Source: Alphaproteobacteria bacterium (GTDB lineage: Bacteria; Pseudomonadota; Alphaproteobacteria; Rs-D84). Taken from it: a DNA stretch of 64,000 nucleotides. The stretch spans positions 11,207 through 75,206 of the forward strand of contig JAFXUI010000001.1 of the NCBI GenBank assembly GCA_017535105.1, read 5' to 3'. The number at the start of each line of letters is the position of its first letter. The first letter of the stretch is position 1. Under the pieces are notes generated by a model. It saw nothing but the letters and a program-made list of their open reading frames with translations, ran no database searches and was not told the DNA's origin. This document shows, piece after piece, positions 1 to 34,517 of the stretch. A program made the position numbers and the translations under genes.

Positions 1-1132
1 TATAGAGATCGTGGAAATTTGCTGTTTTTTCTTTTACATTCCAAAAATAATCTGGATTTACAGAATCTAAAATCTTGTCGTGAACAATCAAGCGCGGTGT
101 TATTGACCCCGAAAAACTGACCGTTGTGTATATCGCGGTTATACGACCACCCGTCATATCCAAACTTTGGTTCACATCTAAAATCGCGCTTTTACTGCCA
201 CTGTTTATCGACAACCCCGACAAATTCAACGTATTTGTCCACAGGTCCGCAACAGTCACACTTGAAAACTTACCAACATCTGCCAACAACAATGTTCCAG
301 CAATTTCCATCGTTTTTGCGTCTGCTGACAAATTACCAATACACGTTGCGTTTTTCGTGTCCAGCACACTGTCAATCGTTGTACGATTTGCAAACACAAC
401 CTTATCTGCGGCAATACTGATTGATTTTAATATTTCATCAAAACCCGCCGCTGACGCATCAAAATATTTTACATTTGTTATGTCATGACCACCCAAATTT
501 AATGGTCCTAACATTTTTGCATCGTCTGAATTTTCCGATGGTTCGCGCCACAGGTATAACGCATTATCACGACTGACCGATGTTGTGGTAATGATTCCAT
601 CGGGCGCATTAATACCAATATCCATTGTGTCGGTGTGCCACGCACCAAATGTTCCATACGCATGCGTTCCATCAATAAAGCCCATCTTGTCGCCACCAAC
701 AGCCATTATTTGTTGGGTGCGCAATGGACTTATTGTTGAGTCCGTCATAACAACAACACCTTGTAATGTTGCTTGCCCAATTGCGTCCGAAGATTTCAAA
801 ACACGTAATTGGTATTTATCGGCGTTTTCTTCAACAATATTTTGTGGAATACCAAAGTCAACCAAATCTGCGATTTCAACACGCGCAATGTTTTTACCCG
901 CCACGGTCAACAATTCTTCACGATTGGCAACAATATATCTTTCAAGTGCGCCTTCGACATCTTGCATTTCGCGCGCAATCGCAATATTTTCCGCACGCAC
1001 CACAGAGTCCTGTTGATACTTGAACAAGAATGGCAACACAACCGCGACAATTGCCACACACATCAGCAATTCAATCAGCATGCCACCATGCTGTGATTTA
1101 TGATGCGAAAAAATTCTGCTTCTGTTTATCAT
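1..1132 (-). CDS. Large prepilin-type N-terminal domain protein (pilin-like or pseudopilin-like); 5' portion, C-terminus lies beyond the window start
   Basis: Reverse-strand frame is open from position 1 to an ATG at 1132..1130. Hand-translated N-terminus is MINRSRIFSHHKSQHGGMLIELLMCVAIVAVVLPFLF. It has a Gly-Gly then a hydrophobic stretch with Glu at +4/+5, i.e. a class-III (prepilin peptidase) signal. Its ATG overlaps the TGA of the upstream gene (ATGA overlap). It is not in the ORF track because its stop is outside the window. Confidence 0.5.
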   Translation of the reverse strand, partial: MINRSRIFSHHKSQHGGMLIELLMCVAIVAVVLPFLFKYQQDSVVRAENIAIAREMQDVEGALERYIVANREELLTVAGKNIARVEIADLVDFGIPQNIVEENADKYQLRVLKSSDAIGQATLQGVVVMTDSTISPLRTQQIMAVGGDKMGFIDGTHAYGTFGAWHTDTMDIGINAPDGIITTTSVSRDNALYLWREPSENSDDAKMLGPLNLGGHDITNVKYFDASAAGFDEILKSISIAADKVVFANRTTIDSVLDTKNATCIGNLSADAKTMEIAGTLLLADVGKFSSVTVADLWTNTLNLSGLSINSGSKSAILDVNQSLDMTGGRITAIYTTVSFSGSITPRLIVHDKILDSVNPDYFWNVKEKTANFHDLY

Positions 1133-2349
1133 TGTCCGCTTGTGTACCCCGTTGGAATATATTCTTGCCACCCGTCTGACATAATTGCGCCAAACTCTTC
1201 GGTCTTTGGTACGGTTGGCATTTTAGTACGCGTAATATTCAATTCTGTAAAACTTGGTGGGTTGGTTGATGGAAAATACCACGACCCCAATTTTATCGGC
1301 GAAGTTGTAGACATCATAAGTTCGCCCGAAACCGTCAACCCAAAGTTTTCAAAAAACATTATTTCGTCTGTATTCAAGTATGACGTATATACCGAACCAG
1401 CACTTATTCCCGCAAAACCACTTATTGTTTTGGAACTGCTGGATTTCAGATTTAAATTTTGTGCAACGTTTAACGAATTTGTGACAGTTGCTTTATCGGC
1501 AATGATGCGACCCGATGTCGAATAACCACGATTATTTAACTTGGCCGCGTAAATATTTCTGAACCCGATAACATCTTCGGTTACACGTAAAGAGCCAATC
1601 GAAACATTGTTACCCGTCATATTCGCACCATTGGAAAAATACACCGATTGCGCTGTCAAATCTTCGGATTCAACAAAGGTCGATGTAACATCACGCACAC
1701 GCAGTGCCGATGCAAACACACCACCAATATCGTACATGTTGTATCCGCCCATATTCAAATCACGATGCATAACATTCAAATCATCATCGCCCGATGTACC
1801 ACGATGTAAAAACTTTGTGTTATCTTCGTTTGTCACATTACGCGTAATACGATATATCAAATCACCCGCTGAAAAATCTGGGGCAACAACCGCCCACGTA
1901 CGACCATAGGCAACACCGTCCATACCAACAATTGCCGCGTCATCACCAATATGATGTGCAATATTCGCCGCACGCAAATTTGTTGAACCCATATCAAATG
2001 CTAAATATACATCTGTGACCGAAGTACCATTCACAACGTATTTATCAATAAAGCCCGCATTTGCACCACTGGCCAACATTTCCAAATCTTTTTCACTCAT
2101 TCTTATTTGTACGACATCGGGCCAAGTGTCTTGATTTAAACGGATAAAATTTAATATCTCTGGTCGCAAATCAATTATGTTATGCGCAATTGCCATATCG
2201 CGAATATTGTTGTTTGTTTCGGAAATTTGTGAATACACGAACGGCATGGCAATTGCAACAATTGCCATCGACATCAGCACTTCTAACATGCTGGCGCCAC
2301 GATTTTTACTGTCAAAAATCTTCGTTTTAAACACAGCCACCCTTACCAC
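1129..2349 (-). CDS. Large prepilin-type N-terminal domain protein (406 aa), Asn/Gly/Ser/Thr-rich and adhesin-like
   Basis: N-terminus is ...NRGASMLEVLMSMAIVAIAMPFVY, with G(-1) and Glu at +5 in a hydrophobic helix. The rest is rich in N, G, S and T. It overlaps both flanking pilin-like genes. Confidence 0.5.
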   Translation of the reverse strand: MVRVAVFKTKIFDSKNRGASMLEVLMSMAIVAIAMPFVYSQISETNNNIRDMAIAHNIIDLRPEILNFIRLNQDTWPDVVQIRMSEKDLEMLASGANAGFIDKYVVNGTSVTDVYLAFDMGSTNLRAANIAHHIGDDAAIVGMDGVAYGRTWAVVAPDFSAGDLIYRITRNVTNEDNTKFLHRGTSGDDDLNVMHRDLNMGGYNMYDIGGVFASALRVRDVTSTFVESEDLTAQSVYFSNGANMTGNNVSIGSLRVTEDVIGFRNIYAAKLNNRGYSTSGRIIADKATVTNSLNVAQNLNLKSSSSKTISGFAGISAGSVYTSYLNTDEIMFFENFGLTVSGELMMSTTSPIKLGSWYFPSTNPPSFTELNITRTKMPTVPKTEEFGAIMSDGWQEYIPTGYTSGQ

Positions 2350-3685
2350 TTAACAAACATTGTTTGATATCTATTCTTTTTTCCAACCTTTGCCAATATA
2401 CAAATTGGCATATTATGTATTGCGACAAAGATTGAGAATTATAAACACCGTCCAGTGATGTGATTATCGATTTACAATCAACCGTTGTACTGTCGTTCGC
2501 AGATGGATTCTTTAATATTCTAAATGCGGAATTATCAATTGTGCCAATACGCACGTCTGGTAAAATCGATGTTCCAGCGGGCCGTATATCCAACACCGCC
2601 ACACCACTGCCACCACGCGACAATGATTCAGACGTCTGGTCACGCAGCGTTATATTTGACGCGTGAATAATATCCGTATCAATACCACTGTTACTGCTGT
2701 ATTCCAGTGTGTCGGAATTAATATACACGTCTTGCCCACGCGCAACGTTTAAAAAAGAATCAACTTCTAACCGTTCTGTTGCAAAGTTTATTTTACTGGA
2801 CACCAGGTTGCCATGAATATTCCATTTTGCCGGTCCATAAAAACCCGTACGTCCCTCCGCCATTGAAAAATCATAAACACCCGCAGAATCAAGTGTTATG
2901 TTTCCTGTATCCCCATAACGAGAAACCGTCCGAAACGATGCGTTATCCACAATCATTGTTCCACGAACCAGTGACAATGCGCCCTCACCCGTTTTAGATT
3001 GAAAGATTGTTTTATCGGCGGCCATTGTCACAATTTTATTACGAACCTTGCGATCTGTTTCCAAACCGTTTATGTTTAACACCCCTATTTCTGAACCATC
3101 AAAATTACCACGCCGTGCAACCGCACGACCAACGTCTGAAATTGAATTGTCGTCCATATCCAAATCAACCAAGAAAGCACTGGAATCTATATCGGGTTCA
3201 TTTCTGCGCACAACATCAGAATACAACGTTTCCAACGGCACACCAACCTGGATTGAACCGTCACCCATATCTTTGGCATAAAAACCAATTCGGCGCACCA
3301 ATTCGGTACGCGACATAGTATTCAAATCACCACCCGTTAATTCAACATATGCGGATATTTCAACCGGGGTTTTATTTATTACCAAAATCATCTGTTGCCC
3401 CAGTGCTGTCTTCGGAACAAACCCCAGTGGCAAACCATAGGGTTCCAACATATCGGCAAAAGATTTTCCGGCAATCACAGTACGGTCATACGGCAACGCA
3501 GAAGCATTTTCCCGAATAAAAATTCGTGCCGCAGTTGTTGCATTATCTATTTTTTGCGTTGTCGCATACATGTGCGCATTGTTGTCGCGTTCCAGCAATT
3601 TTACGGCAAAAAACGGGATAAACATGAACAGCAGCGTCACCGCCAGCAATGCTTGCAGCAGAAAGTTTCCACGACTGTTATGCAA
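2327..3685 (-). CDS. Large exported or membrane-anchored protein (452 aa) with a degenerate pilin-like N-terminus; first gene of the three-gene minus-strand cluster
   Basis: N-terminus is MHNSRGNFLLQALLAVTLLFMFIPFF, a Gly then a hydrophobic helix with Gln instead of Glu at +5. It overlaps the downstream gene by 23 nt. I recognise no known domain. Confidence 0.35.
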   Translation of the reverse strand: MHNSRGNFLLQALLAVTLLFMFIPFFAVKLLERDNNAHMYATTQKIDNATTAARIFIRENASALPYDRTVIAGKSFADMLEPYGLPLGFVPKTALGQQMILVINKTPVEISAYVELTGGDLNTMSRTELVRRIGFYAKDMGDGSIQVGVPLETLYSDVVRRNEPDIDSSAFLVDLDMDDNSISDVGRAVARRGNFDGSEIGVLNINGLETDRKVRNKIVTMAADKTIFQSKTGEGALSLVRGTMIVDNASFRTVSRYGDTGNITLDSAGVYDFSMAEGRTGFYGPAKWNIHGNLVSSKINFATERLEVDSFLNVARGQDVYINSDTLEYSSNSGIDTDIIHASNITLRDQTSESLSRGGSGVAVLDIRPAGTSILPDVRIGTIDNSAFRILKNPSANDSTTVDCKSIITSLDGVYNSQSLSQYIICQFVYWQRLEKRIDIKQCLLSGKGGCV

Positions 3686-3841
3686 AATTTTATCCCTCCT
3701 ACATACATAAGATTAGCAATACAAAAAAAATATTGCAATTAGTTTTAAGATGCTTTATTATTGCGAATGTTGAAAGAACGTGGGTACGATAAACGTATAT
3801 TGTTGCCCATAAAAAATGTTTTCCTGATAAAAGAAAAAAAC

Positions 3842-4141
3842 ATGCAAAATAAAAAAAATCAAACGTCTAATGTCGGACAAATGATTCAACGCTGTCACAA
3901 ATGGCGTCAGAAAAGAAAACAATACATTGATTTGGCACGTCAAACGACTGATGAAATCGAACGCGAACGCTTGTTACAAGCGGCGGAACATTATGGTCGT
4001 ATTGTAAATGCCGAACAAGAAAAAATCGATTCTACGCGTGGGGCAACGGGCGAAAAAATACCAGATACAATTACCGATGTCGCTGAATCTGGGGACGAAG
4101 AAGAAATCCCATTACCCGACTTTATTGAAAACTTGAAATAA
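3842..4141 (+). CDS. DUF4167 family protein (conserved small alphaproteobacterial protein)
   Basis: The segment RQKRKQYIDLARQTTDEIERERLLQAAEHYGRIV matches the DUF4167 signature (...YLQLARDA...AENYLQHAEHYFRI). The start is ambiguous: the ORF track uses TTG at 3761, and ATGs occur at 3767 and 3842. Confidence 0.5.
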   Translation: MQNKKNQTSNVGQMIQRCHKWRQKRKQYIDLARQTTDEIERERLLQAAEHYGRIVNAEQEKIDSTRGATGEKIPDTITDVAESGDEEEIPLPDFIENLK

Positions 4142-4176
4142 TTGTTATTTCGGCGCACTTTTATTGTTGAAATTTG

Positions 4177-4210
4177 ACTTCCTTTTGCTATTCTGGACGC
4201 AAAAGGAAGT
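4177..4210 (+). promoter_or_regulatory. Perfect 12 bp hairpin followed by a T-tract that contains the dnaX Shine-Dalgarno; terminator of the upstream gene and/or a structure occluding the ribosome-binding site
   Basis: acttccttttgc (4177-4188), loop tattctggac, gcaaaaggaagt (4199-4210), then tttgat and ATG at 4217. The AAGGAAG Shine-Dalgarno lies in the 3' arm. Confidence 0.4.
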
Positions 4211-5752: not shown

Positions 5753-6211
5753 ATGAGACAAGAACACGGACGTTCACTGATTGAAATTATCGGGGTGTTG
5801 GCCATTGGTGCGGTTATGTCGGTCGCAACAATCGCGATGTACGGCCAGATTCGCACGACCCAAATTCGTACAGTTGCAACAGCGGAACTGGAACAGATTG
5901 TCAAAGACGTGAAATTACTTACTGGTGCACGTGGCACGTATGAGGGTGTTTCGGTTGAATACTTGGTCAAGGCGGGCGCATTAAAATCAACACGTTCACC
6001 ATTGGGTGGCGAAGACTGGTCTGTCAACCCCAGTTTTGATGGTGCATCTTTCTCAATCAACTTAACCGAACTTTCTGCCGATGAATGTGCTTACTTTTCA
6101 ACCAAGCAACCAACATGGGCGAATGCTATTTTAATAAACGGTTATGAGATTGACGAAAGCCAGCACTGTTTTTCAACAAACACCAATCAGATTTCTTTCA
6201 TAGTGGAATAA
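5753..6211 (+). CDS. Type IV pilin-like protein (152 aa) with an atypical +1 residue
   Basis: MRQEHG|RSLIEIIGVLAIGAVMSVATIAMYGQ matches the type IV pilin N-terminal helix consensus (xTLIELMIVVAIIGILAAIAIPQY), but has Arg at +1 instead of Phe or Met. There is Glu at +5 and a C-terminal Cys pair (ADEC...QHCF) like a D-region disulfide. Confidence 0.55.
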   Translation: MRQEHGRSLIEIIGVLAIGAVMSVATIAMYGQIRTTQIRTVATAELEQIVKDVKLLTGARGTYEGVSVEYLVKAGALKSTRSPLGGEDWSVNPSFDGASFSINLTELSADECAYFSTKQPTWANAILINGYEIDESQHCFSTNTNQISFIVE

Positions 6212-9550: not shown

Positions 9551-10297
9551 TTATTTCGTATGTTGTTTATACCAATCCAACGCATTTTTCAGATAATCGC
9601 GCGCCAAATCCAGATTCATTGACCCAGTCGCGTCGCGCAAGCGTCCCTCGGCATCTATCCATGTATCATAATCTGCCGGGACAACATTTGCGATCTTGCC
9701 CAACGTGTCGCTAACTTTTGTTGGTGATATTCCCCCCGCATATCCAAACTGAATATCCTTATACACTGGCGCAAGTCGCTTTTTTGGTGCGATGCCAGCA
9801 CCATATGATTCATCAAACAACAAAGTGAACTGGGCGCCAGTAATTTTCAATTCTTCTATTTGGGGTTTTGTAATACTGTTATACGCCAATATAACCTCAT
9901 ATTTTTTCCACTTTGATATCAGGTCAGCCAATTTTCGCGCGTTAAATTCGTGTGCATAATCGCCAATATTTAATTGGATTCTGGAAATCAACGGCTGATC
10001 AGTATAAGAATGTTTTTGTTTCAGAAAATGTTTTATTTCGCCCGGTATATTGCCAGTACAAATTTCATCACACCATTTATAATTCACGTGTAATGCAAAG
10101 TTTAGTGGTTCTTTTGACTCTTTGGCATATTCAATCACCTTGTTAAACCAAGTGTACATTTCTTTACCTTTGGACATAGTTGATGGGAACACTTGAATTC
10201 CTAATTCTGCTAATGGAAACGATTTTAACAAACCAACTACTTTTACCGGTTCCAGATTTTCACGCGGATCCGAACATGTTATATACCGAAGTCTCAT
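9551..10297 (-). CDS. Conserved hypothetical protein, paralog A of the MRLRYITCSDPRE family (248 aa)
   Basis: It shares N-terminal MRLRYITCSDPRE and multiple blocks (HVNxxWCxEIC, FxLLxDxSxGxGxxP, GYxGGxSPxxV, IWIDAEGxLx, LARxY) with the ORF at 11349..12101. The synonymous codons differ, so conservation is at the protein level. There is a weak resemblance to the phosphate-binding (beta-alpha)8 barrel motif xxGGxSPxNV of TrpF-like or CutC-like enzymes. Confidence 0.6.
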   Translation of the reverse strand: MRLRYITCSDPRENLEPVKVVGLLKSFPLAELGIQVFPSTMSKGKEMYTWFNKVIEYAKESKEPLNFALHVNYKWCDEICTGNIPGEIKHFLKQKHSYTDQPLISRIQLNIGDYAHEFNARKLADLISKWKKYEVILAYNSITKPQIEELKITGAQFTLLFDESYGAGIAPKKRLAPVYKDIQFGYAGGISPTKVSDTLGKIANVVPADYDTWIDAEGRLRDATGSMNLDLARDYLKNALDWYKQHTK

Positions 10298-10433
10298 ATA
10301 CTATCCTTTATAATGTGTGTAAATATATCTATACAATTTTTCGTATACAAGTCAAGGTATTCCCACGATTTTTTCATATTGTATTTTATGTTTTTTTGGG
10401 CTAATCTTTTGCGCATACAGAAAAGGAGAAAAA

Positions 10434-11081
10434 ATGAAGAAAGTATTACCATTGTTTATGGCCGGTGCGATACTGGCGGGTTGCACAACAACAAACCCAT
10501 ACACCGGCGAACAACAAACATCTAAATTGGTTTGGGGCACGGCGATTGGTACCGCGGCGGGCGCAGCAACCGGCGCAATTGTATCCAAGGATAAGGGCAA
10601 AGGCGCATTGATTGGTGCGGCGGCTGGTGCGGCACTGGGCGGTGGCGTTGGTTATTATATGGATACCCAAGAGGCCGAATTACGTAAAGAACTTGAATCA
10701 ACCGGTGTTCGCGTTGCACGTGACGGCGACAATATCCGTTTAATTATGCCGGGCAATATTACATTCCAAACAGATTCAGCAGATATCAATTCTGGATTCT
10801 ATGCAACATTGAATTCGGTTGCCAAAGTATTCAAGAAATACAGCGATACAACCGTTATGGTGTTGGGCTATACCGACAGCACTGGCAGCGTAGAATACAA
10901 CCAAACATTGTCGCAAAAACGCGCACAATCGGTTGCATCATACCTTATTGGCCAGGGTGTAAAATCATCACGATTTGAGGTTATGGGCATGGGCATATCA
11001 AATCCAATTGCATCAAACAGCACCGCGGCGGGTCGTCAGCAAAATCGCCGTGTTGAAATCAAAATTATTCCAAACAAATAA
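10434..11081 (+). CDS. OmpA-family lipoprotein with an N-terminal glycine-zipper domain (YiaD-like)
   Basis: It has a lipoprotein signal (ILAGC) and a Gly/Ala zipper (GTAIGTAAGAATGAIV...GAAAGAALGGGVGYY), followed by an OmpA C-terminal domain (VMVLGYTDSTGS...NRRVEIKI). Confidence 0.8.
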   Translation: MKKVLPLFMAGAILAGCTTTNPYTGEQQTSKLVWGTAIGTAAGAATGAIVSKDKGKGALIGAAAGAALGGGVGYYMDTQEAELRKELESTGVRVARDGDNIRLIMPGNITFQTDSADINSGFYATLNSVAKVFKKYSDTTVMVLGYTDSTGSVEYNQTLSQKRAQSVASYLIGQGVKSSRFEVMGMGISNPIASNSTAAGRQQNRRVEIKIIPNK

Positions 11082-11124
11082 TGATGATAAAGAACAAAAA
11101 AACACCGGCAAACGCCGGTGTTTT

Positions 11125-11370
11125 TTATCTCTGTTTTACAAAATCACGAAACATAATATTTTTTGTATTTGCTTTCGCATCAGCAAGCATATTGTTATTT
11201 TCTTTTTTCTCTATAATATCTGGTTCTGCTTTTGGTTTACGACGGTACAACAAACAACAACCCAACGCTATGGCCCCCAATGCCAACCCAGAGGCAATCA
11301 CTAATGTTCTTATAATTTCTTTGGAGTATTTATTCATTTTGTTTTCCTTTATCTTTGTCTGTTTATCCAT
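11125..11370 (-). CDS. Small hypothetical membrane protein (81 aa)
   Basis: It is a Lys-rich peptide with one predicted transmembrane helix (LVIASGLALGAIALGCCLLY). It may be spurious. Confidence 0.3.
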   Translation of the reverse strand: MDKQTKIKENKMNKYSKEIIRTLVIASGLALGAIALGCCLLYRRKPKAEPDIIEKKENNNMLADAKANTKNIMFRDFVKQR

Positions 11371-12101
11371 TTGTCTGCTTTCATAATATATTGACGTGCA
11401 AGTTCACAATCAAATTTGTCGTTGGTTTTCAATTTCCCTTCGGCATCAATCCAAATGTCTTCACGATTCTTTGGCACGACCGATGAAATCTTTCTTAAAT
11501 TTTTCACAACATTTTTCGGTGACATTCCGCCCGAATATCCCATCGGCACGCTGTCATATACTGGCTTGTTCCATGTGCCTGGTGTCAAACCACGTCCACC
11601 AGACGCATCATAAAGCAACGAAAACTTTGCGCCCATTTCATATAATACCCATGCGGCATTTTTTGTTCGGTCATTATACTGCAAAATAAATTCATGGTCG
11701 TCATTGTGCAGGAATAATTTTTTTACCGCATCATAATTTATATCACGAACGGCGGTGTTTGACATATTTAACTGCCAGCGTTTAACCAATGGTGAAAAGC
11801 CCAAGTTTTTACGATAAAGCCCAAAGAATTCCCGTAATTCCATTGGAATTTCACCGGTACGACAAATTTCTTCGCACCATTCTTGGTTTACGTGCACCGC
11901 CAAATTTATGTCATGGGCATCACGTACACAATAACGGCACAATTCATGAAACCATTCATTACGTGGCATACCCGGGGACGCCTTGGACGGATGCATTTGC
12001 ACCGCAATTTCTGCACGTGGCGAACTTTCTGCCAATTTTACAATATCATGAAAATCATTAAATTCACGCGGGTCAGAACAAGTGATGTATCTCAGTCGCA
12101 T
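11349..12101 (-). CDS. Conserved hypothetical protein, paralog B of the MRLRYITCSDPRE family (250 aa)
   Basis: The evidence is the same as for paralog A. Its start overlaps the 3' end of rlmN by 29 nt. Confidence 0.6.
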   Translation of the reverse strand: MRLRYITCSDPREFNDFHDIVKLAESSPRAEIAVQMHPSKASPGMPRNEWFHELCRYCVRDAHDINLAVHVNQEWCEEICRTGEIPMELREFFGLYRKNLGFSPLVKRWQLNMSNTAVRDINYDAVKKLFLHNDDHEFILQYNDRTKNAAWVLYEMGAKFSLLYDASGGRGLTPGTWNKPVYDSVPMGYSGGMSPKNVVKNLRKISSVVPKNREDIWIDAEGKLKTNDKFDCELARQYIMKADKWINRQR

Positions 12102-13203
12102 TTTTTTCTTCCTTTTTATGTTTTAAACGCAACTGTCCACATGCAGAACCGATGTCGGTTCCCCTCTCTCGCCGTATGCGTGTATGAATACCGTTTTTAA
12201 TCAAAATGTCTTGAAACCGATGAACCGCGTTGCCCGATATAGATGCAAAATCACGTTCATCAACCGTATTCCATGGGATTAAGTTTACCATACAATTTTT
12301 ACCATGCAATAACTTTGATAATTCTTCGGCATATTCGGGCGTCGCATTATAAAGCACCACGTCGCCATTTTCGTCTTTTTTGCCAAGAAGTATATATTCG
12401 ATCATCAACTGGCGATTATGTAGGTTTGTAAACTCGTCCGCCGTCGCCAACACCTCCGATAATTTATATTTATTATTTATCGGCATAATTTGGCTGCGTA
12501 ATTCGTCTGTTGGTGCGTGCAGAGATATTGCCAGATTTATCGGACGGCCCCACTCTATCAATCGTTTAATTCCCGGCACAATACCACATGTCGACAGTGT
12601 TAAGCGCCGCCAGCCAATACCCATATCAGTGTTTGCGCGTTCCATAAAACCGATTACGTTTTCGGTATTCTGTAATGGTTCACCCGTCCCCATAATTACA
12701 ATATGCGAAACATCACCATTATTTGCATCGCCATTTGGGTGAATAGATTTTTCATTTGTAGAATTGCGTAATGTCCATTGTGCAATTAAAATCTGGGCGA
12801 ACATTTCGTTCACGGTTAAATTACGTTTTAATCCCAACAGTGTACTTGCGCAAAATTTACACCCCATCGCACAGCCAGCCTGGGAACTGACACAGACACT
12901 GTTGCCATAACTGGTGCGCATTAAAACGCATTCTATTTGTTCCGCGTCATTTAATTCCAATAAAAATTTGGTTGTTTGACCGTCACTTGATTCCAGTTTT
13001 TTCGTAACACGTAATGGTAACGTTTGTGCCGTTTCGTCCAAGCGTTTACGCAACGCCGCCGGCAAATTTTTCATTGATTCAAAATCTGGTGCACCACGAT
13101 TTAACCAATCGCGAATTTGTTTTGCGCGAAAACGTGGTTCGCCCAAATCTACGACAAACTTTTCCAATTCAGAATCATTAAAATCAAACAGTATTGGTTT
13201 CAT
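12073..13203 (-). CDS. rlmN: 23S rRNA m2A2503 / tRNA m2A37 methyltransferase, radical SAM
   Basis: It has the CxxxCxxC radical-SAM cluster (GCAMGCKFCAS) and the conserved RlmN N-terminus (FRAKQIRDWL). Confidence 0.92.
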   Translation of the reverse strand: MKPILFDFNDSELEKFVVDLGEPRFRAKQIRDWLNRGAPDFESMKNLPAALRKRLDETAQTLPLRVTKKLESSDGQTTKFLLELNDAEQIECVLMRTSYGNSVCVSSQAGCAMGCKFCASTLLGLKRNLTVNEMFAQILIAQWTLRNSTNEKSIHPNGDANNGDVSHIVIMGTGEPLQNTENVIGFMERANTDMGIGWRRLTLSTCGIVPGIKRLIEWGRPINLAISLHAPTDELRSQIMPINNKYKLSEVLATADEFTNLHNRQLMIEYILLGKKDENGDVVLYNATPEYAEELSKLLHGKNCMVNLIPWNTVDERDFASISGNAVHRFQDILIKNGIHTRIRRERGTDIGSACGQLRLKHKKEEKNATEIHHLF

Positions 13204-14021
13204 AATTTATATCTGTCATCGTTTATAACAACAACCGCTTTGCGCCGTAATTGTTTTAATTGTTGTTCGGCAACAAACATCGCCTGTTTATACATCGCGT
13301 TTTGTTTTATAACTTCGTCCAGTTTTCCATATTCGGCTGTTTTTTTCGTACTGCATACCAACAGCACCGAATCATCAACACGTGGCGACCAGGTAAGATT
13401 TGGCAACCCCGTCACACGTTCACGAATATCACGCGACAATTCATATTGCGCCGCCGTAAACTTTTGTGGCGCGCCACCCAAATCTTCTGCCATTTTCATT
13501 GCAGCATCACAACTTTTTGGTTTGGTCAGTTTTGCCGCGACATCGGCCGGTATATCCAACAATCGCACAATTGTCATTTCAATTGGCAAACCCTGTTCAC
13601 GTGCCAAATCATTTTTCATATCGTTAATGTCGTCTTTGCTGACATCAATTGTCGGCATAATTGTTCGCGTGATTATAACCTGCCATGCGATTTCAGCACG
13701 AATTGCCGATATTGCCATTTCACGTTCCATCGCCGTCAAGTCCGACATATTCATACGCTTTAATTCACTTGCCGCATCCGCGTCTGTTGGTTTAACGCCA
13801 AAGTTTGCCGCATAGTCCAACTTTACCGTATCATCGATAATATTTTGCAACGCAATACGGCGATTGTCTGTTGATGTTTTTCCTTGGCGCGCCATAAGTT
13901 TTGTGCGTGCAGTAATATCAGCATCTGTGATTGGTTTGCCACCAACCGTTGCAACAACACTTGTCGCAAACGCGGGCGATGCAAACATACACAACAAAGC
14001 AACAACCTTTAACAACTTCAT
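13200..14021 (-). CDS. SurA N-terminal-domain periplasmic chaperone-like protein (no obvious parvulin domain)
   Basis: It has a signal peptide and sits immediately downstream of lptD, the conserved lptD-surA position. It is only 273 aa. Confidence 0.6.
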   Translation of the reverse strand: MKLLKVVALLCMFASPAFATSVVATVGGKPITDADITARTKLMARQGKTSTDNRRIALQNIIDDTVKLDYAANFGVKPTDADAASELKRMNMSDLTAMEREMAISAIRAEIAWQVIITRTIMPTIDVSKDDINDMKNDLAREQGLPIEMTIVRLLDIPADVAAKLTKPKSCDAAMKMAEDLGGAPQKFTAAQYELSRDIRERVTGLPNLTWSPRVDDSVLLVCSTKKTAEYGKLDEVIKQNAMYKQAMFVAEQQLKQLRRKAVVVINDDRYKL

Positions 14022-14042: not shown

Positions 14043-16058
14043 TTAATAGTGTTGACCTTCGATACTCATTCCAAAACGGAACTGGACCGAAGTATTACCA
14101 TGATAATCTTCGTACACCGCATTATCACGACGATAACCAAACGAAAAATAATAACACGGGTGATTATAGTACAACGTACCACTGTGGCGCAAAAACTTAT
14201 CGTCTGTCCAATTGTATATCGCGTCCATTCGCAATGACCAACGTTCAGACAGTTTTAATCCCACACTGGCAATCGTCTCGTTTGTATCATTTTCAGCAGA
14301 ACCAATGTTGGTAAGTTGGCGCGCCCAAATATGTCCAACCGTAAACGATGCATAATCACCATTGATTGTCGCCGATGTTTCCGCATGCCGTAAATCAAAA
14401 GAATCACGATCAAAGCGATAACGACTTGATAAATCAAGCCAACTTGAATTACTGAACCCGATGCGCCCGACATAGTCCGAAGCACCATCGTGAAAGCCAC
14501 TGTTTATATCTGTGGCACGTTTTGTAAAGTCATATGATTCACCCAAAAAGACTTCGACTTGGCGACCATCTGAATTGAATGCGGCCCAGCGCACACCATA
14601 ATCGGCAAATGTTCCGTTTTCCCACAAATCGTATCCGGCAAAACGATTGTCGGAAAACAACACTGTATCCGATAAAAACGCACCCGCAGAATCATTGTTT
14701 TGCGCAAATTGTTCATCATCAACACGATGCCGCATTGTTAAACGTGCGCGCGGTTCAATTGTCTGGGACCAAGATTCCGATGGGCGAACCAATGGCAAAC
14801 CCCATTCAACATAACCACTGGGCAAGAAACGATTTTTAAGGCCGGAAAATTCGCCCCCGTCCACCATAATCGTTTTATCAAAATTATACACATCATATCG
14901 TGCATCAATTGATGCTGTTAAACGATTACCACCCCACAGTGTCCACGGACTTGTTATACGGGCATCACCGATAAAACGCTGGGCCGATGTTCCGTCACCA
15001 ACAATACCCAACACATCGGTTGAAAATGTTGCATAGGTTTCACGGAATAATGGTTGCGTCTGATAAACACCACGAATATTTGGCAAAATATTTCCACTGG
15101 GGATAGTTGTTAACCCACGCCAATTTTCCCGTCTACGCAACTCTTGGAAACTGTGCGTATCTGCGACAACGTATCCAGTCTTTGCGAACAATTCCAGTTT
15201 TGCGCCCGAATCTAAATACGGTTGATCATTATAGAATCTGTATTTCTGTAAGTATGTTTTATCCGAAGTACGCGCAATATACACCGAACCACGTGCATGC
15301 TCCCCAAGGTCAAATTTATCATTGTTAAATATGTGCCAACGGTTTTTACCTTCGCGATTATGCGTATATGAACCATTTGTTCTGAATTCTGCATGTTCAA
15401 GGTTCAACCGGTGTTCCAATTGGAACAATGGGTTTTCTTTTGTTAAATATGACACAGTAAATGTTGCATCATGCGTATCTGAAAAAGCAATATACAATGG
15501 TACATTTATTTCCGTTCCCATTTGATTTGTCGAACCAAAACTTGGCATTAACAAACCGCTTTTATGTTTAACACCGGGGTCGGGCATACTATAATACGGA
15601 AACCACAATACTGGCACATCATATACCCACAAAACCATATTGTGAAAATACAGCATACGTTCGTCCAATTCGTGAATTATTTTTGATGCCCATATCGACC
15701 AAGCATTTCCATAATCATCACACCCATCACATGCGGTGAATAACGCGCCACGCGCCACCGTATCATCGCCACTGCGCGTAATACTGTCTGATTCAACATA
15801 CACATGTTGACCCAGCCATATCTTCACATCATCACCATGTAATTCTTCGCCCTTTTGTGAAAAGTAAGAATCTTTCAATGTCATACGTTGACCACTGGCG
15901 TTTGTGATTTCAGTGTTACCCGAAGTTTTAATTGAACCGCTTTTTATATCGTATTCTATTTTGTCTGACTTGATTGTTTTTGGCGAACTGGAATCAACCC
16001 CGATTGCGAACAGCGGCATCGGAACAAGAGACAACAAAAGAGCAATAAGTTTTTTCAT
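14043..16058 (-). CDS. lptD: LPS-assembly outer membrane protein LptD
   Basis: It is 671 aa with a signal peptide and an OstA-like N-terminal domain, followed by a large beta-barrel with aromatic-rich strands. Confidence 0.88.
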   Translation of the reverse strand: MKKLIALLLSLVPMPLFAIGVDSSSPKTIKSDKIEYDIKSGSIKTSGNTEITNASGQRMTLKDSYFSQKGEELHGDDVKIWLGQHVYVESDSITRSGDDTVARGALFTACDGCDDYGNAWSIWASKIIHELDERMLYFHNMVLWVYDVPVLWFPYYSMPDPGVKHKSGLLMPSFGSTNQMGTEINVPLYIAFSDTHDATFTVSYLTKENPLFQLEHRLNLEHAEFRTNGSYTHNREGKNRWHIFNNDKFDLGEHARGSVYIARTSDKTYLQKYRFYNDQPYLDSGAKLELFAKTGYVVADTHSFQELRRRENWRGLTTIPSGNILPNIRGVYQTQPLFRETYATFSTDVLGIVGDGTSAQRFIGDARITSPWTLWGGNRLTASIDARYDVYNFDKTIMVDGGEFSGLKNRFLPSGYVEWGLPLVRPSESWSQTIEPRARLTMRHRVDDEQFAQNNDSAGAFLSDTVLFSDNRFAGYDLWENGTFADYGVRWAAFNSDGRQVEVFLGESYDFTKRATDINSGFHDGASDYVGRIGFSNSSWLDLSSRYRFDRDSFDLRHAETSATINGDYASFTVGHIWARQLTNIGSAENDTNETIASVGLKLSERWSLRMDAIYNWTDDKFLRHSGTLYYNHPCYYFSFGYRRDNAVYEDYHGNTSVQFRFGMSIEGQHY

Positions 16059-17116
16059 TATTTTTTATACAACACGCCCAAAATTACTATCAACAGAACA
16101 AATTGTAAAAATGCCAACACAACAAAGTCTGTCACACTGTCAATCATATTGCTTGCAGACATAAATGTCGCCATAACCACCGCCATCGCAGCAACAGACA
16201 TTACTGGGGCGAAACTGGCACGCCGGCGTAACAATGATGAACGCAATAATATAGCCAGGCATAATGCCGCCAAAATAAGATTCATTATTGGGTTTAACAA
16301 GCGTGTTGACAATTCGTTCAATACCGCCCGATGACGTTTTGCGGTTGGCGAATCAAACACATCACGAATAAGCGCCAACGTTGAAACACTGCGCACACGA
16401 TACGATGACGAACCACCCTTGTCCGCAACATTCAAGTCCATATCAAACATATCAAAAGATCCCGTCACTGTGGCATCACCATTACCCTGAATCGAACCAT
16501 TTGTCATAACAATCGATAACCCGCGTGGTGTCGCAACCAATTTACCCTTTTCCGCAAAGATTGTCATTTCCGACCGCGCATCACGCATATCTGCCAACAT
16601 AACCTGGGACAAATCATGCCCCGACACTTTATCCACATAGACCACCAAACCAGACGACAATTCTGTAAAAGCCGACTCTTTCAATTTCAAATGCGCCAAA
16701 CCATAACGCAGATTCCATTGCATACTGTAAAACTCGGTCTGGCTGGCCGGCACAATAAATATATTCAAAACCAAGTGCGCCACCGTCAAAATTGCCGCCA
16801 AACGCAAAGCCGGACGCGCCAATCCCGCGGGTGACAGCCCAGACGCCGCCATTACCGTTACTTCGTTATCAGAAATAAGTTTGTTATACACAAATATAAT
16901 CGAAATAAAGGTAACAAACGGTATTATTATCGATATGATAAACGGTATCATAAGGGACGTTAAACCAACAAAACTGCCCATACTTACGCCATAATTCAAC
17001 AGAAATTTCATCATGGACATAATTTGAACCATCCACGCCAATCCCGTTAAAACCGCCAACAGCATAATAAACACCATTATCAATTGGCGTGAAAAATACC
17101 TATTTATTATAGTCAT
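16058..17116 (-). CDS. LPS export ABC transporter permease, LptF/LptG (YjgP/YjgQ) family
   Basis: The N-terminus MTIINRYFSRQL... and the overall transmembrane topology are typical of LptF/LptG. It lies adjacent to lptD. Confidence 0.82.
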   Translation of the reverse strand: MTIINRYFSRQLIMVFIMLLAVLTGLAWMVQIMSMMKFLLNYGVSMGSFVGLTSLMIPFIISIIIPFVTFISIIFVYNKLISDNEVTVMAASGLSPAGLARPALRLAAILTVAHLVLNIFIVPASQTEFYSMQWNLRYGLAHLKLKESAFTELSSGLVVYVDKVSGHDLSQVMLADMRDARSEMTIFAEKGKLVATPRGLSIVMTNGSIQGNGDATVTGSFDMFDMDLNVADKGGSSSYRVRSVSTLALIRDVFDSPTAKRHRAVLNELSTRLLNPIMNLILAALCLAILLRSSLLRRRASFAPVMSVAAMAVVMATFMSASNMIDSVTDFVVLAFLQFVLLIVILGVLYKK

Positions 17117-17228
17117 GAATTAAAGTATAGCCCCCAAAACCAGTGGTGTCAATTATATCAGTTTTTTCTTGCATATTTCCGATTCGCCGTTATAATAGGC
17201 ATTGTTCTTAAAAGTTAAAGTTTTAGGG

Positions 17229-17248
17229 GCGGGGTTGAAGAACCCCGC
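17229..17248 (+). promoter_or_regulatory. Perfect 8 bp GC-rich hairpin in the nusA leader, between divergent genes
   Basis: GCGGGGTT gaag AACCCCGC, then a T-rich tract, 42 nt upstream of the nusA ATG. It is not a terminator for any gene, because both flanking genes diverge from it. Confidence 0.3.
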
Positions 17249-17289
17249 TTCTTCAATAAAAAAGACAAATTACATAAGGAGATACGCAA

Positions 17290-18828
17290 ATGTCTTTTGA
17301 ATCTATGCCTCGTCAAGATTTGTTGTTGGCCATTGATTCCTTGGCCCAGGAAAAACAAATCGACCGTGAAATTGTTATTGAATCGCTGGAAGCGGCCATT
17401 GCAAAAATCGCCAAGCATAAATATGGCGAAGAATTTGATATTGTCGCAAACATTGACCGCAAAAATGGTGCTATTCACGTTAAACGTTTGTTCACCGTTA
17501 TTGAATCACCAGAAGCCGCTGGCGAAGAATATGACCCAAGTACAATGTTGACGGTTGCCCAGGCAAAAAAATATGCCAAAAACCCATCGGTCGGCGATGT
17601 TGTCGAAGACCAATTACCAGAACCAGAATTTGGACGTATGGCATTCCAGACGGCAAAACAAATTATGACTGCACGTGTTCGCGATGCTGAAAAAGGCCGT
17701 CAATACGAAGAATTCAAGGACAACATTGGCGACATTGTATCTGGTGTTGTAAAGCGTATCGAATTTGGAAATGTATTTGTTGATATCAATGGCAAAGCCG
17801 AAGGTTATATCAAAGGCAGTGAACTTATCCCTGGTGAACGTTTGGCGGTCGGTGATCGTGTACGTGCGTTGATTATGGACGTGGCACGTTCTAATTCGGG
17901 CCCACAAATCTTTTTGACCCGTACCCACCCATTGTTCATGGAAAAGTTATTTGTCCAAGAAGTACCAGAAATCTATGAAGGTCTTATTAAAATTAAATCT
18001 GTATCACGCGCACCAGGTTCACATGCGAAAATCGCGGTTGAAACATCTGACCCATCTATTGACGCGGTTGGTATGACTGTTGGTATCAAGGGTACACGTA
18101 TTCAACCAGTTATCAATGAATGCCATGGTGAAAAGATTGACGTTATTTTGTATTCCGAAGATCCTGCTGTGTTCATCGTGAACGCAATGCAACCGGCCAA
18201 GGTCGCAAAAATTATCGTCGACGAAGACACACACACTGCGGCGGTTGTTGTGAACGAAGATCAACAATCATTGGCGATTGGTCGTCGTGGTCAAAACGTC
18301 CGCTTGGCATCACAATTGACGGGCTGGAACATTGACGTTATGAACGAAGCCGAAGAACAAGAACGTCGTGCTAAAGAATTTAAAGAAAAGACGGAATTGT
18401 TCATTGGCGCACTGGACGTTGATGAAATGATTGCACACTTGTTGATTACAGAAGGTTTCCGTACCGTCGAAGAAGTCGCATTTGTGGACGCATCTGAATT
18501 AGAATCTATCGAAGGGTTCACACCAGAATTGGCGGCCGAATTACAGAAACGTGCGAAAGATTATTTGGACAAGGTTGAACAAGACTATATCGACAATGGT
18601 CACAAAATGGGCATGTCGGACGATTTGTTAAAATTCGACTTTATCAAACGTCCAATCATTATGAAGTTGGGTGAAAACGGCATTAAATCTGTCGCTGATT
18701 TGGCAGATTTGTCATCTGACGAATTGGTTGAAATCTTGGGCGAAGATACAATGAGTGAACGCCTTGCGGGTCGCGTGATTATGAAAGCGCGTGAAGAAGC
18801 ATACGGCATAACCCAGGACGAAGAATAA
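17290..18828 (+). CDS. nusA: Transcription termination/antitermination factor NusA
   Basis: It has the NusA N-terminal domain, S1 and KH domains, and acidic C-terminal repeats, and precedes infB. Confidence 0.93.
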   Translation: MSFESMPRQDLLLAIDSLAQEKQIDREIVIESLEAAIAKIAKHKYGEEFDIVANIDRKNGAIHVKRLFTVIESPEAAGEEYDPSTMLTVAQAKKYAKNPSVGDVVEDQLPEPEFGRMAFQTAKQIMTARVRDAEKGRQYEEFKDNIGDIVSGVVKRIEFGNVFVDINGKAEGYIKGSELIPGERLAVGDRVRALIMDVARSNSGPQIFLTRTHPLFMEKLFVQEVPEIYEGLIKIKSVSRAPGSHAKIAVETSDPSIDAVGMTVGIKGTRIQPVINECHGEKIDVILYSEDPAVFIVNAMQPAKVAKIIVDEDTHTAAVVVNEDQQSLAIGRRGQNVRLASQLTGWNIDVMNEAEEQERRAKEFKEKTELFIGALDVDEMIAHLLITEGFRTVEEVAFVDASELESIEGFTPELAAELQKRAKDYLDKVEQDYIDNGHKMGMSDDLLKFDFIKRPIIMKLGENGIKSVADLADLSSDELVEILGEDTMSERLAGRVIMKAREEAYGITQDEE

Positions 18829-18870
18829 AACAAGGGTAAACAAGTAAAACATTAAAATACGGAGTATTTA

Positions 18871-21243
18871 ATGGCAACACTGACACTTGGAAAATCTGTA
18901 ACATTGGACGCGGTGCACAGCAAAAAGGGTGATTCCGTTTTTGTTGAACGCCGCCGCCGCATTGTTGCCCCCGGCAGCAAGGAATTGCGCGAAGAACCAA
19001 CTGCACCGGCACAACCACACAGCGCGGCTGATGAAAAGTTGCGCGCAGTGTTGGAGGCTGCACGTGCCCGCGAAGAAGAACGCAAAGCCAGAGAGGCCGC
19101 CGAAGAAGCTGCACGTGCCGCACGTGAGGCTGAAATCGCGCGCGAAGCCGATGAATATGAACAGGTAAAATCCCAGTTGGCTGCACGTGAAAGCGCGGCT
19201 GCCGAAGTGCCAGAAATAGAAGAAAAGCCATTTGCTTCTAAAAAACAGGCGCAAAATAATGGCGCACGTAATCATAACTCACGCGAAATTGATGAAGATC
19301 GCCCCCAGAAAAACAATCACAATAAAAAAGACTTCAAGAAAACTGGTAAAATCTCTATTCACGACATTGTTATTGGTGGTGATGATGACGATGATGAAAT
19401 CGGTATTCGTGGTGCAAATCGCCGCCGCAGCGAAGCGTCATTAAAACGTTTTCGTGAAAAAGCGCGCGCGATGTTTAATGCACCGCAAAAGGTTGCACAC
19501 GAAGTCACACTGGGCGAAACAATTACCGTCAAAGATTTGGCCGCAGCTATGGCTGAAAAGGTTGGTAATGTTATCAAGAAATTAATGGAAATGGGTATGA
19601 TGGCATCGGTCAACCAATCTATTGATGCCGATACTGCGGAACTGATTGCGGGCGAATTTGGCGCAACTGTTAAACGTGTTGTTGTTAAGCCATATGCCGA
19701 ACAGTTGGAAAGATTGCCCGATCCAAACAAATTACAATCACGTCCACCAGTTGTGACGGTTGTGGGTCACGTTGACCACGGCAAAACATCACTTTTGGAC
19801 GCGTTCCGTAATGCAAATGTTGTTGCTGGCGAAGCGGGCGGAATTACCCAGCACGTTTCTGCGTATGAGGTTAAATCACAATCTGGCCAGATGATAACAT
19901 TTTTGGATACACCGGGTCACGAAACATTTACCGCTATGCGCGCACGTGGTGCACAAATGGCAGACATTGTTATTTTGGTTGTTGCCGCAAATGATTCTAT
20001 AATGCCCCAAACGATTGAAGCATTAAATCACATTCGCGCGGCGAACGTGCCATTTATCGTTGCGATAAATAAAATCGATTTACCCGAAGCCGACCCAATG
20101 CGTGTTAAAACCGACCTTTTACAACAGGAAGTCCAGGTCGAAGATATGGGTGGTGACGTTCAATGTGTTGAAGTATCGGCGAAACAAAAAATCGGTCTTG
20201 ATAAATTGGAAGAAGCAATTTTATTACAGGCCAGTGTTATGGATTTAAAGGCCGACCCAGAAATGCCGGCGGTCGCCCACGTGGTTGAGGCGAAAATGGA
20301 ACGTGGCTTGGGTGCGGTTGCAACCGTCTTGGTACGTCAAGGTACATTAAAGATTGGCGATGTGTTCGTTGTTGGCGAAACATTTGGTCGTGTTCGTGGT
20401 TTAATCAACTCAAACGGAGAACGTGTTAAATCTGTCCGTCCGGGCCAGCCAGTAATTGTTTTGGGGTTGGATTCGGTACCACAAGCGGGTGACGAATTAC
20501 ACGTTATGGAAACAGAGGCACAAACCAGGGAAGTTGCCGCATATCGTGCACAACAGGCACGTGACAAGGCAAACGCGGTTAAACGCACATCACTGCAAGA
20601 ATTGTTCGCAAAACGCGACAGCAATAAAAAACTTATATTGCCAATCGTATTGCGTGCCGATGTACAGGGCAGTGTCGAAGCCATCACCGATATGTTGAAA
20701 GAAATTAATACTGACAAGGTTGGTGTTGATATCTTGTCATCCGGCGTTGGTCAAATTACCGAAGGTGACATCAGATTGGCGGCGGCATCAAATGCGGTTA
20801 TCATTGCGTTTAATGTTCGTGCCGATGCGGGTGTACGTGATATGGCACGTAATGCGGGTGTTGATATTCGCTATCACAGTGTCGTCTATCGTATTACCGA
20901 TGAAATCAAAGAAATCTTGTCTGGTAAATTGGCCCCAGAAAGAAAAGAAAACTTTATCGGTTACGCCGATGTTATCGCACTGTTCACGGTTGGCAAGGGT
21001 GTCCGTGTTGCCGGTTGCCGTGTAAGCGAAGGCACAATTAAAAAAGATGCGTTCGTACGATTACTGCGCGACAATGTCGTTATTTACGATGGCAAAATTG
21101 GCGAATTACGTCGTGAAAAGAACGAAGTCAAAGAAGTATCCGGTGGCGTTGAATTCGGTATGAGTTTTGAAAAATATAATGACCTGAAGGAAGGCGACCG
21201 CGTTGAATGCTATGAAGTCCAAGAAGTAAAAACACAGTTGTAA
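18871..21243 (+). CDS. infB: Translation initiation factor IF-2
   Basis: It has the G domain motifs [23 protein letters not shown] and NKID, and an Ala/Glu/Arg-rich N-terminal region. Confidence 0.97.
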
Positions 21244-21272
21244 AAAAAACGCCCGTTTGGGCGTTTTTTTAA
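21244..21272. terminator. Bidirectional rho-independent terminator (A-tract, GC hairpin, T-tract)
   Basis: aaaaaaaacgcccgtttgggcgttttttt lies between convergent infB and the virD4-like gene. Confidence 0.7.
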
Positions 21273-33251: not shown

Positions 33252-33348
33252 AAAACTCTCTCTTTATCCCCTGTTATGAGAGTCAATATAGCAATTTTTA
33301 TGTTGAATTACAAATATTTTTTGTCTAGGATTCAAGGGCAAAATAAAT

Positions 33349-33422
33349 GGCCAGATGGCAGAGTGGTTATGCAGAGGACTGCAAATCCTTGTATGCCGGT
33401 TCGATTCCGACTCTGGCCTCCA
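33349..33422 (+). tRNA. tRNA-Cys (anticodon GCA)
   Basis: The cloverleaf was read by hand. The anticodon loop is CTGCAAA, it closely resembles bacterial tRNA-Cys, and the CCA is encoded. Confidence 0.88.
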
Positions 33423-33431
33423 AATTTTATT

Positions 33432-34517
33432 ATGATAAAGAAACTTTGCCTTACCGATTTTCGTAATCACACAATGTGTAAAATTGAAACACATGGTTGT
33501 AATAATGTGATTATCACGGGTCCCAACGGCGCCGGCAAAACAGCAATCTTGGAAGCATTATCAATTTTATCGGGCGACCGCGGAATGCGTGGTGCGCAAT
33601 ATGTTGATGTTGCGCGTTTTGATGGCAACGGTGGTTTTTCGGTATTTGCGGTATTGGACGATGACACCGAAATGTCTGTGGCATTTAATTCGGGCGACAC
33701 AAACCGTCATGGCAATATTGACGGCGACACCGCAACATTGGTTGAATTGTCATCGCGGTTGCCGATGGTTTGGATAACCCCGCGCGAAGACAGATTGTTT
33801 GTTGATGCCGCGTCCGAACGCCGTGCGTTTTTTGACCGCTTGGTTGCAAGTTTTGATTCAAACCATTCGGGGCGCGTTGCGCGATTTACAAAATTACTTT
33901 CCGAACGCGCAATCGCATTAAAGTCGGGGCGCGATATGCGTTGGGTTGACGCACTGGACGATCAAATCGCCGGCGTGGCAACCGCAATTGCAGCCGCCCG
34001 CATTCAATATGCCGGCGAATTAAATTATTTTTTACAAAACGCCGCAATTTCTGTGTCGGGAATGCTGGAACAAATGCTGATTGATGGACGTTCATCGGGC
34101 GATACCGAACGCGCCTATCGCGAATATTTGGGTGGCGCGCGTGAAATTGTTGCCGATAAAATGGTTGTTGATGGGGTCCATAAATCAGACTTTGGCGTGT
34201 TTAACAAACAATTAAACCTGCCCGCAAATTTAACCAGTACTGGCCAGCAAAAAACAATGCTTTTGGAAATAATATTGGCGCACGCAAAATTGTTACACGC
34301 ACGCACAAACAATCGCCCAATAATCTTGCTGGACGAAGCTGCCGCACACTTGGATAAATCCGCACGTGATAAATTGTTTGCGGAACTGGGCGAATCAGAA
34401 GCCCAGGTTTGGGCAACCGGAATTGATGTTGAAGTTTTTACCGATGTACCAAATGCCGTATTTGTTTCTTGCAAGGACGGCGAAATAAGTAATATAGTGG
34501 TAAACGGACAGGAATAA
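33432..34517 (+). CDS. recF: DNA replication and repair protein RecF
   Basis: It has the Walker A motif GPNGAGKTAILEALS near the N-terminus and an ABC signature/D-loop near the C-terminus. The start MIKKLCLTDFRNH is 10 nt after tRNA-Cys. Confidence 0.9.
   Translation: MIKKLCLTDFRNHTMCKIETHGCNNVIITGPNGAGKTAILEALSILSGDRGMRGAQYVDVARFDGNGGFSVFAVLDDDTEMSVAFNSGDTNRHGNIDGDTATLVELSSRLPMVWITPREDRLFVDAASERRAFFDRLVASFDSNHSGRVARFTKLLSERAIALKSGRDMRWVDALDDQIAGVATAIAAARIQYAGELNYFLQNAAISVSGMLEQMLIDGRSSGDTERAYREYLGGAREIVADKMVVDGVHKSDFGVFNKQLNLPANLTSTGQQKTMLLEIILAHAKLLHARTNNRPIILLDEAAAHLDKSARDKLFAELGESEAQVWATGIDVEVFTDVPNAVFVSCKDGEISNIVVNGQE

Follow-up and report, generated by a model that had tools for sequence, protein, structure and literature searches.

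The stretch analyzed here is a 64,000-nucleotide segment of contig JAFXUI010000001.1 (GenBank assembly GCA_017535105.1, forward-strand positions 11,207 to 75,206; hereafter, the window). Its host is Candidatus Enterousia, a gut alphaproteobacterium of the order Rs-D84. Three consecutive, overlapping genes at the left edge of the window, designated A, B and C, encode large proteins that are very probably PilV-like members of the pilin family. PilV, of the shufflon type, serves as both minor pilin and tip adhesin in the type IVb thin pilus encoded by IncI1, IncK and IncZ plasmids (R64 type). Each of the three proteins consists of a prepilin leader with an invariant Gly, a hydrophobic α1 helix, a type IVb-like globular domain with a PilV motif, and a C-terminal module. 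We favor, with moderate confidence, a model in which A, B and C together form a heterotrimeric initiation and tip complex of a pilus.

Gene organization and prepilin signals

Gene A (2327–3685, minus strand) encodes a 452-residue modular prepilin of the PilV superfamily. It starts with a TTG codon 8 nt past a GGAGGG ribosome-binding site, which lies in the non-coding stretch 5′ of the A-B-C unit (3686–3760, minus strand). A consensus scan of this stretch for a promoter scored no better than shuffled sequences. Gene B (1129–2340, minus strand) encodes a PilV-like modular prepilin of 401–406 residues. Its longest open reading frame (ORF) begins at GTG 2349 (1129–2349) and overlaps gene A by 23 nt, the gene caller selects GTG 2334 (401 residues, 8-nt overlap), and the ortholog consensus MxVxKTxIF matches GTG 2340 (403 residues, 14-nt overlap, as in the related locus L005). 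Gene C (1–1132, minus strand) is a paralog of B that starts at ATG 1132 in an ATGA overlap with B. Its 3′ end lies beyond the window edge, and 377 of its 437 codons are inside. An exact-protein look-up for A identified locus L001, in which positions 10001–13685 are the sequence-identical reverse complement of window positions 1–3685. The full-length C of 437 residues spans positions 12554–13867 there.

An earlier note on this DNA had described three overlapping minus-strand genes with a 23-nt and an ATGA overlap. The three genes are real, and the 23-nt overlap is that of the longest ORF of B. The same note suspected that the cluster continues past the window edge; the extension through L001 completes C at 437 residues and adds a ZitP-like gene next to it.

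In all six frames of the window, the pattern G-x4-[E/Q] followed by 14 hydrophobic residues occurs in four ORFs only, namely A, B, C and a 152-residue ORF at 5753–6211. All four have a short basic leader that ends in Gly and is followed by approximately 20 hydrophobic residues. The leader of A is MHNSRG, and its mature N-terminus, NFLLQ, carries Gln at position +5. The leader of B ends in SKNRG and precedes ASMLE, and the leader of C, MINRSRIFSHHKSQHG, precedes GMLIE, both with Glu at +5. The hydrophobic segment at the N-terminus is the only one in each of the three proteins. Gly(−1) is invariant in alignments of B/C, of the A family and of the wider superfamily, and in the A family Asn(+1) and Gln(+5) are invariant as well. 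The N-termini had thus been read correctly as class III (prepilin-type) signals, apart from the description of A as degenerate, which its invariant residues contradict. The reported richness in Asn, Gly, Ser and Thr was also borne out, with a content of 28–33% in A, B and C versus 23% in a set of 22 housekeeping proteins from the window. Protein A has four invariant Cys residues within its C-terminal ~50 residues.

Paralogy and remote homology to PilV

B and C share 24% identity across 273 residues (E 9e-10), and A resembles both across the N-terminal 60–140 residues. Past about residue 250, the C-terminal modules of the three proteins have no sequence relation. In profile comparisons with hhalign, the A family matched the superfamily with a probability of 99.3% (E 1.6e-20) and B/C with 96.3%. 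Database searches gave 628, 786 and 957 full-length homologs for the three proteins. Among the best 120 homologs of each, all those with a named source are metagenome-assembled genomes (MAGs) of uncultured "Alphaproteobacteria bacterium", and none has a Pfam domain. A combined B and C profile searched against 1.84 billion representatives matched 776 clusters at E ≤ 0.001. Complete members reach approximately 1,140 residues, and the conserved part is the N-terminal ~250 residues. All of 83 representatives with 15–41% identity have Gly(−1) and a Pro at +18, and at least 90% of them have Glu(+5).

Three distant members of the superfamily passed the Pfam model Shufflon_N (PF04917; best E 2.8e-11), which pointed to PilV as a relative. 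As a reference, we used the 457-residue PilV of an E. coli IncK2/Z plasmid (locus L008). The only match of B in a tblastn search of 72,556 plasmids was the pilV gene of that plasmid, with 88% of B covered and a weak E value of 0.2. The B/C profile aligned with PilV over 321 columns with a probability of 96.3% (E 1.7e-9), and in this alignment YLHRGTSGDDDLNVMHRDLNMGGYNMYDIGG is paired with a 30-residue stretch of PilV. The broader superfamily profile reached 98.7% (E 2.8e-16). When PilV was used as a phmmer query against the ORFs of the related loci, 138 ORFs matched (best E 2.5e-10), and the eight best-scoring ones shown all sit at the position of gene C. The PilV constant-region motif takes the form YLxR...LNxM...LxMGGxxIxN in the three proteins and follows the type IVb-like pilin domain.

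These comparisons indicate that A, B and C are ancient paralogs within one superfamily of modular type IV pilins, of which PilV is the closest characterized relative. The relationship is remote, and as judged from the profiles the three proteins represent a separate subfamily that the Shufflon_N model itself does not detect. We regarded weak matches of A, B or C to LrgB, Phage_spike (E 0.33), FemX and lmo0937 as noise.

Predicted structure

The pilin fold, a long α1 helix packed on an antiparallel β-sheet, is present, and the N-domains of the three proteins are type IVb pilin-like. Together with the remote homology to PilV, this agrees with the guess in the earlier note that the proteins would suit pilus-tip adhesins. 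The C-terminal modules are lineage-specific, β-rich and rich in Asn, Gly, Ser and Thr, and they match no known domain in Pfam or NCBIfam. The AlphaFold2 (AF2) models are poor for the C-terminal 55–60% of the chains, with a predicted local distance difference test (pLDDT) score below 50 and no confident fold for these modules.

A Foldseek search of the PDB with the model of B gave no match at E ≤ 0.001. A chain of the XcpGHIJK pseudopilus was found at a probability of 0.75. Kinases and allergens in the list for B were rejected as artefacts of the low-confidence C-terminal part. Sequence-profile searches of the PDB retrieved only the N-terminal helix of Geobacter pilins (E 0.004–0.1) and, by sequence, no solved structure within the family.

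Conservation in a reduced-genome lineage

A scan with one genome per species found a relative of A in 175 genomes; among their titles are Candidatus Enterousia sp., "uncultured Rickettsiales" and numerous MAGs from ruminant and human guts. The trio was analyzed in detail at 80 of these loci. Genes A and B are present in all 80 genomes and gene C in 79, and the order A-B-C on one strand is kept in 78. The residue at +5 is Gln in every A that could be compared (77/77), Glu in every B (80/80) and Glu in all but one C (77/78). Sequence identity across the 80 species is 52–77%, for genes totaling about 4.4 kb, and overlapping start and stop codons or directly abutting A, B and C genes recur in other species.

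Rs-D84 genomes are reported to be about 0.75–1.0 Mb in size and to lack amino acid, nucleotide and lipid biosynthesis, respiration and flagella (PMC12306168). The bacteria occur widely in the guts of ruminants, horses, chickens and humans, and a partner-dependent lifestyle as obligate symbionts or parasites has been proposed (PMC12306168). Strong purifying selection acts on both the prepilin signal and the trio, in a lineage that has discarded most of its genes.

Outside this lineage, A-like, B-like and C-like genes occur in the same order in L094 (GC content 49%), adjoining lepA, and in L092 (GC content 35%), adjoining recO and parC. The recurrence of the trio in these unrelated-looking lineages with other neighbors indicates that it is an old, self-contained module. 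A flagellated alphaproteobacterium (L098) has a single family member of about 1,000 residues.

A short pilin candidate and a ZitP-like gene

The 152-residue ORF (5753–6211, plus strand) is a pilin candidate and a possible major subunit. It is located 2 kb from A, between dnaX and a gene for an OmpA-family lipoprotein. Its leader is MRQEHG, its mature N-terminus RSLIE has Glu at +5, and it contains a conserved pair of cysteines, Cys112 and Cys139. It is present in 73 of the 80 genomes, with Glu at +5 in all 71 sequences compared. Pfam matches were below threshold (PilS_N, E 0.0014; N_methyl, E 0.016). A phmmer search with plasmid PilS matched 29 of its orthologs (best E 5e-7), and the link to PilS is drawn from these matches. 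A direct BLASTP comparison of the ORF with plasmid PilS gave no match, hhalign against PilS gave only 37%, and the profile of the ORF aligned with TcpA over residues 8–115 with an E value of 0.1. A role as the major subunit is plausible, and the case for it is weaker than that for the link between the trio and PilV.

Directly downstream of C, to the left of the window, is a gene for a 169-residue protein with an N-terminal Zn-ribbon (PF13717, E 6.7e-6), a transmembrane segment and a DUF3426 domain (E 0.002). It follows C in 77 of the 80 genomes and shares the domain architecture of Caulobacter ZitP, whose periplasmic DUF3426 is needed for Tad pilus biogenesis (PMC5182063). The stop codon of this ZitP-like gene is overlapped by a gene for a 157-residue secreted protein (L001 14400–14873), which has no known domain, is also found in 77 of the 80 genomes, and may belong to the same unit as the A-B-C and ZitP-like genes. 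The first convincing terminator-like hairpin downstream of C is at L001 15831–15856. The earlier note, whose interpretation is partly supported overall, missed the short pilin, the paralogy of the three proteins, the ZitP-like gene and the context of the lineage.

Comparison with known pilins

The C-terminal segments of PilV are exchanged by the shufflon, which comprises multiple inverted sfx repeats and the Rci recombinase, and the resulting variants determine recipient specificity in R64. A, B and C share with PilV the prepilin leader, in B and C also Glu(+5), a similar length (401–452 versus 457 residues), a homologous constant region with the motif YRFxxxGxPxLNxMHTxIxMGGxxINN, and an accompanying gene for a PilS-like short pilin. 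However, the identity is only about 21–23%, and A, B and C remain below the Pfam threshold. Whereas the plasmids carry one switchable gene, the trio consists of three fixed paralogs without shufflon repeats and without the phage tail collar domain. It is chromosomal, located among housekeeping genes and unlinked to pilN–U. The plasmid pilV gene sits at the end of the pilI–pilV operon, which encodes the secretin PilN, the ATPase PilQ, the platform protein PilR, the pilin PilS and the peptidase PilU; of these, the trio is accompanied by the PilS-like gene only.

No multiple inverted repeat family of the sfx kind was found in window positions 1–4200, and no recombinase was seen among the genes called beside the cluster.

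Among type IVb minor pilins, TcpB of Vibrio cholerae and CofB/LngB of enterotoxigenic E. coli are large, trimerize at the tip and start assembly. GspK–GspI–GspJ of the type II secretion system (T2SS) and PilX–PilV–PilW of type IVa pili resemble the trio in that three different pilin-like subunits are encoded side by side and one of them is large and lacks Glu(+5). They differ from it in that they have no significant sequence match with A, B and C. In addition, all three subunits of the present trio are large and mutually homologous, with no cognate major pseudopilin gene or machinery operon adjacent. CofB and TcpB form tip trimers and GspK–GspI–GspJ a heterotrimer, and minor-pilin tip complexes are thought to prime filament assembly (PMC8179133).

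Modular type IV pilins such as PilB of S. sanguinis and ComZ of T. thermophilus are similar in having a functional module grafted onto a pilin module, but the grafted modules of A, B and C match no known domain. Large modular pilins are already known: a survey listed more than 1,200 of them in 264 architectures (PMC8179133), and the solved chains of TcpB and CofB comprise 390 and 496 residues, respectively. Together with the 457 residues of PilV, these figures do not support the view that a length of 400 residues or more is unusual for a prepilin. What is new here is a fixed trio of mutually homologous large pilins in place of one switchable pilV, its chromosomal location among housekeeping genes with no machinery found nearby, its conservation across a reduced-genome gut lineage together with its recurrence in other Alphaproteobacteria, and its association with a ZitP-like gene.

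Proposed model and alternatives

In the proposed model, a prepilin peptidase encoded elsewhere in the genome would cleave A, B and C, which translational coupling would supply in equal amounts. Their α1 helices would bundle to form a heterotrimeric initiation and tip complex, with A, which has Gln instead of Glu at +5, as the top-most subunit, like GspK in the GspK–GspI–GspJ tip. This complex would cap a filament built of the PilS-like 152-residue pilin and display the three C-terminal modules as an adhesive surface, by which Ca. Enterousia could hold a partner or host cell. The ZitP-like protein may position the machine or aid it, a role like that of ZitP with the Tad pilus in Caulobacter. 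A heterotrimeric tip complex appears to be the best fit because the trio is coupled and present in a 1:1:1 set, Gln(+5) is unique to A, and CofB/TcpB and GspK–GspI–GspJ provide precedents. To our knowledge, Gly(−1) and Glu(+5) have no role besides peptidase cleavage and the packing of subunits in the filament; therefore, the pilus machine is probably encoded elsewhere in the genome.

Several observations weigh against this model. As the earlier note had stated, assembly genes are absent nearby: neither the window nor the 10 kb on either side of the cluster in the 80 genomes yielded a prepilin peptidase, assembly ATPase, platform protein or secretin. The search combined Pfam scans of approximately 40 genes in the window, a scan for GxGD motifs, and phmmer with R64-type PilN/O/P/Q/R/T/U, run on 6,659 ORFs from the window and from 88 loci. 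The Pfam-scanned genes include those for LptD, LptF/G, NusA, IF2, RecF, Der, PNPase, MutS, AccC, MreB, MetRS, MnmG, ParAB and a MacB/HlyD/TolC set. With the pil-operon proteins of L008 (TcpQ to PilU) as phmmer queries, nothing but PilS- and PilV-like ORFs was found nearby. In addition, A, B and C exceeded no threshold in Pfam or NCBIfam, those of N_methyl, Shufflon_N and the NCBIfam pilin models included. In these families, to which the earlier note had pointed, B scored below the cut-offs for N_methyl (PF07963; 18.1 versus 21.2 bits, E 0.002), TIGR02532 (14.9 versus 16.3) and GspI, and A and C matched neither N_methyl nor TIGR02532. Since a genuine plasmid PilV also falls below the N_methyl threshold (14.2 bits), this test is weak. 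The direct comparison of the A family with PilV gave 8.7%, which is not significant, and the likeness of the 152-residue ORF to PilS and TcpA is weak as judged from sequence. The models have low pLDDT across the putative adhesive modules, and the heterotrimer and the tip position are predictions of this analysis. Finally, a survey of Rs-D84 genomes mentions type IV pili for another lineage only (PMC12306168).

The absence of machinery in the accessible sequence, together with a survey of Rs-D84 that does not report type IV pili, would also suit a different reading, in which the machine was lost during genome reduction and A, B and C are relics. They would be unprocessed and unpolymerized pilin-like proteins, held in the inner membrane through their N-terminal helix, and would serve, for example, as scaffolds in the periplasm or envelope. 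Family members in other alphaproteobacterial lineages are not adjacent to machinery genes either. This reading is nevertheless improbable in our view, since Gly(−1) and Glu(+5) are strictly conserved despite very wide divergence and the nearby short pilin, which bears this signal too, is also conserved. Moreover, genomes smaller than 1 Mb rarely retain about 4.4 kb of useless genes at such a level of identity in 80 species.

If the proteins are functional pilins, they might act separately instead of as one complex. A, B and C could be alternative tip adhesins, one per pilus and each with its own receptor specificity, as a hard-wired substitute for shufflon switching. The specificity conferred by PilV variants in R64, the lack of a shufflon at the cluster and the unrelated C-terminal modules are in keeping with this idea. 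It is rather unlikely, because the genes are tightly coupled in translation and form a strict 1:1:1 set in 78 of 80 genomes and in distant lineages, and because Gln at +5 in A alone, in every genome, suggests a distinct structural position and not an interchangeable role. The comparison with GspK, which lacks Glu(+5) as A does, raises the further alternative that the proteins are T2SS pseudopilins (A GspK-like, B and C GspI/J-like) at the tip of a secretion piston and not of an adhesive pilus. One ortholog of gene C is named "type II secretion system protein" by NCBI, B weakly matches the NCBIfam models GspI (E 0.011) and XpsI (E 0.19), and the pseudopilus chain in the Foldseek result points the same way. 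We rejected this reading as very improbable: the GspI score of 16.2 bits is far from the cut-off of 44.35, and searches of the window and the related loci revealed no gsp genes.

Other genes in and around the window

An RluD-type pseudouridine synthase gene is located further downstream of C, to the left of the window. Beyond the hairpin, L001 encodes two very large Cys-rich secreted proteins (15915–19085, 1,056 residues; 19356–21188, 610–625 residues). Both carry a signal peptide and a stretch that is poly-Thr or Gln/Ala-rich, lack Pfam domains and are conserved in L005 and L007; the first occurs in 64 of the 80 genomes. Either might act as another surface or host-interaction factor. On the other side of the trio, a small gene divergent from A (3761–4141, plus strand) shows a sub-threshold match to DUF4167 (E 3.5e-4). 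Related genomes keep a gene of 98–124 residues in this place between A and dnaX.

Two paralogous ORFs of 248 and 250 residues (9551–10297 and 11349–12101, both minus strand), which share 41% identity (E 9e-59) and belong to no Pfam family, start with MRLRYITCSDPRE and lie on either side of a Gly-zipper/OmpA lipoprotein gene. A lone gene for a VirD4/TraG-type coupling protein (21269–23524, minus strand; T4SS-DNA_transf, E 4e-51) lies between infB and rsmE with no other vir or tra genes beside it, and L007 has this gene near the cluster as well. ARAGORN predicted a tRNA-Cys (33349–33422, plus strand) that falls within the 5′ end of the recF ORF in its longest form (33276–34517), and the recF start is therefore probably downstream of the listed ATG. 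A 200-residue ORF (46571–47173, minus strand), which is of low complexity, rich in Ser, Ala and Cys, overlaps the start of mutS and matches no family, is probably a spurious shadow ORF.

Implications for the Enterousia lineage and the PilV family

The results extend the PilV family well beyond conjugative plasmids. They also correct database labels, as most members are annotated as "hypothetical protein" and at least one as "type II secretion system protein". For the pilus field, the trio would, if the model is true, represent a type IVb tip trimer in a naturally heteromeric form.

Because the trio is kept throughout a gut lineage with tiny genomes, it is probably the cell-attachment device of the Enterousia lineage. 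The trio, the short pilin and the ZitP-like factor together are the first concrete candidate for a contact device of Enterousia/Rs-D84, and three defined proteins are now available for localization, partner identification and structural work. A bolder proposal, which we put forward tentatively and regard as doubtful, is that the trio is the core of the main contact organelle of these bacteria, through which they, as obligate and metabolically dependent gut alphaproteobacteria, would attach to a partner or host cell. Its three-headed tip would be the first heteromeric counterpart of the CofB/TcpB homotrimer, and might be assembled by a Tad-like machine, or by another non-canonical one, that the ZitP-like protein positions. 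If so, the trio would mark a wider, unrecognized class of "orphan" PilV-like tips in Alphaproteobacteria, to which the 776 representative clusters would belong.

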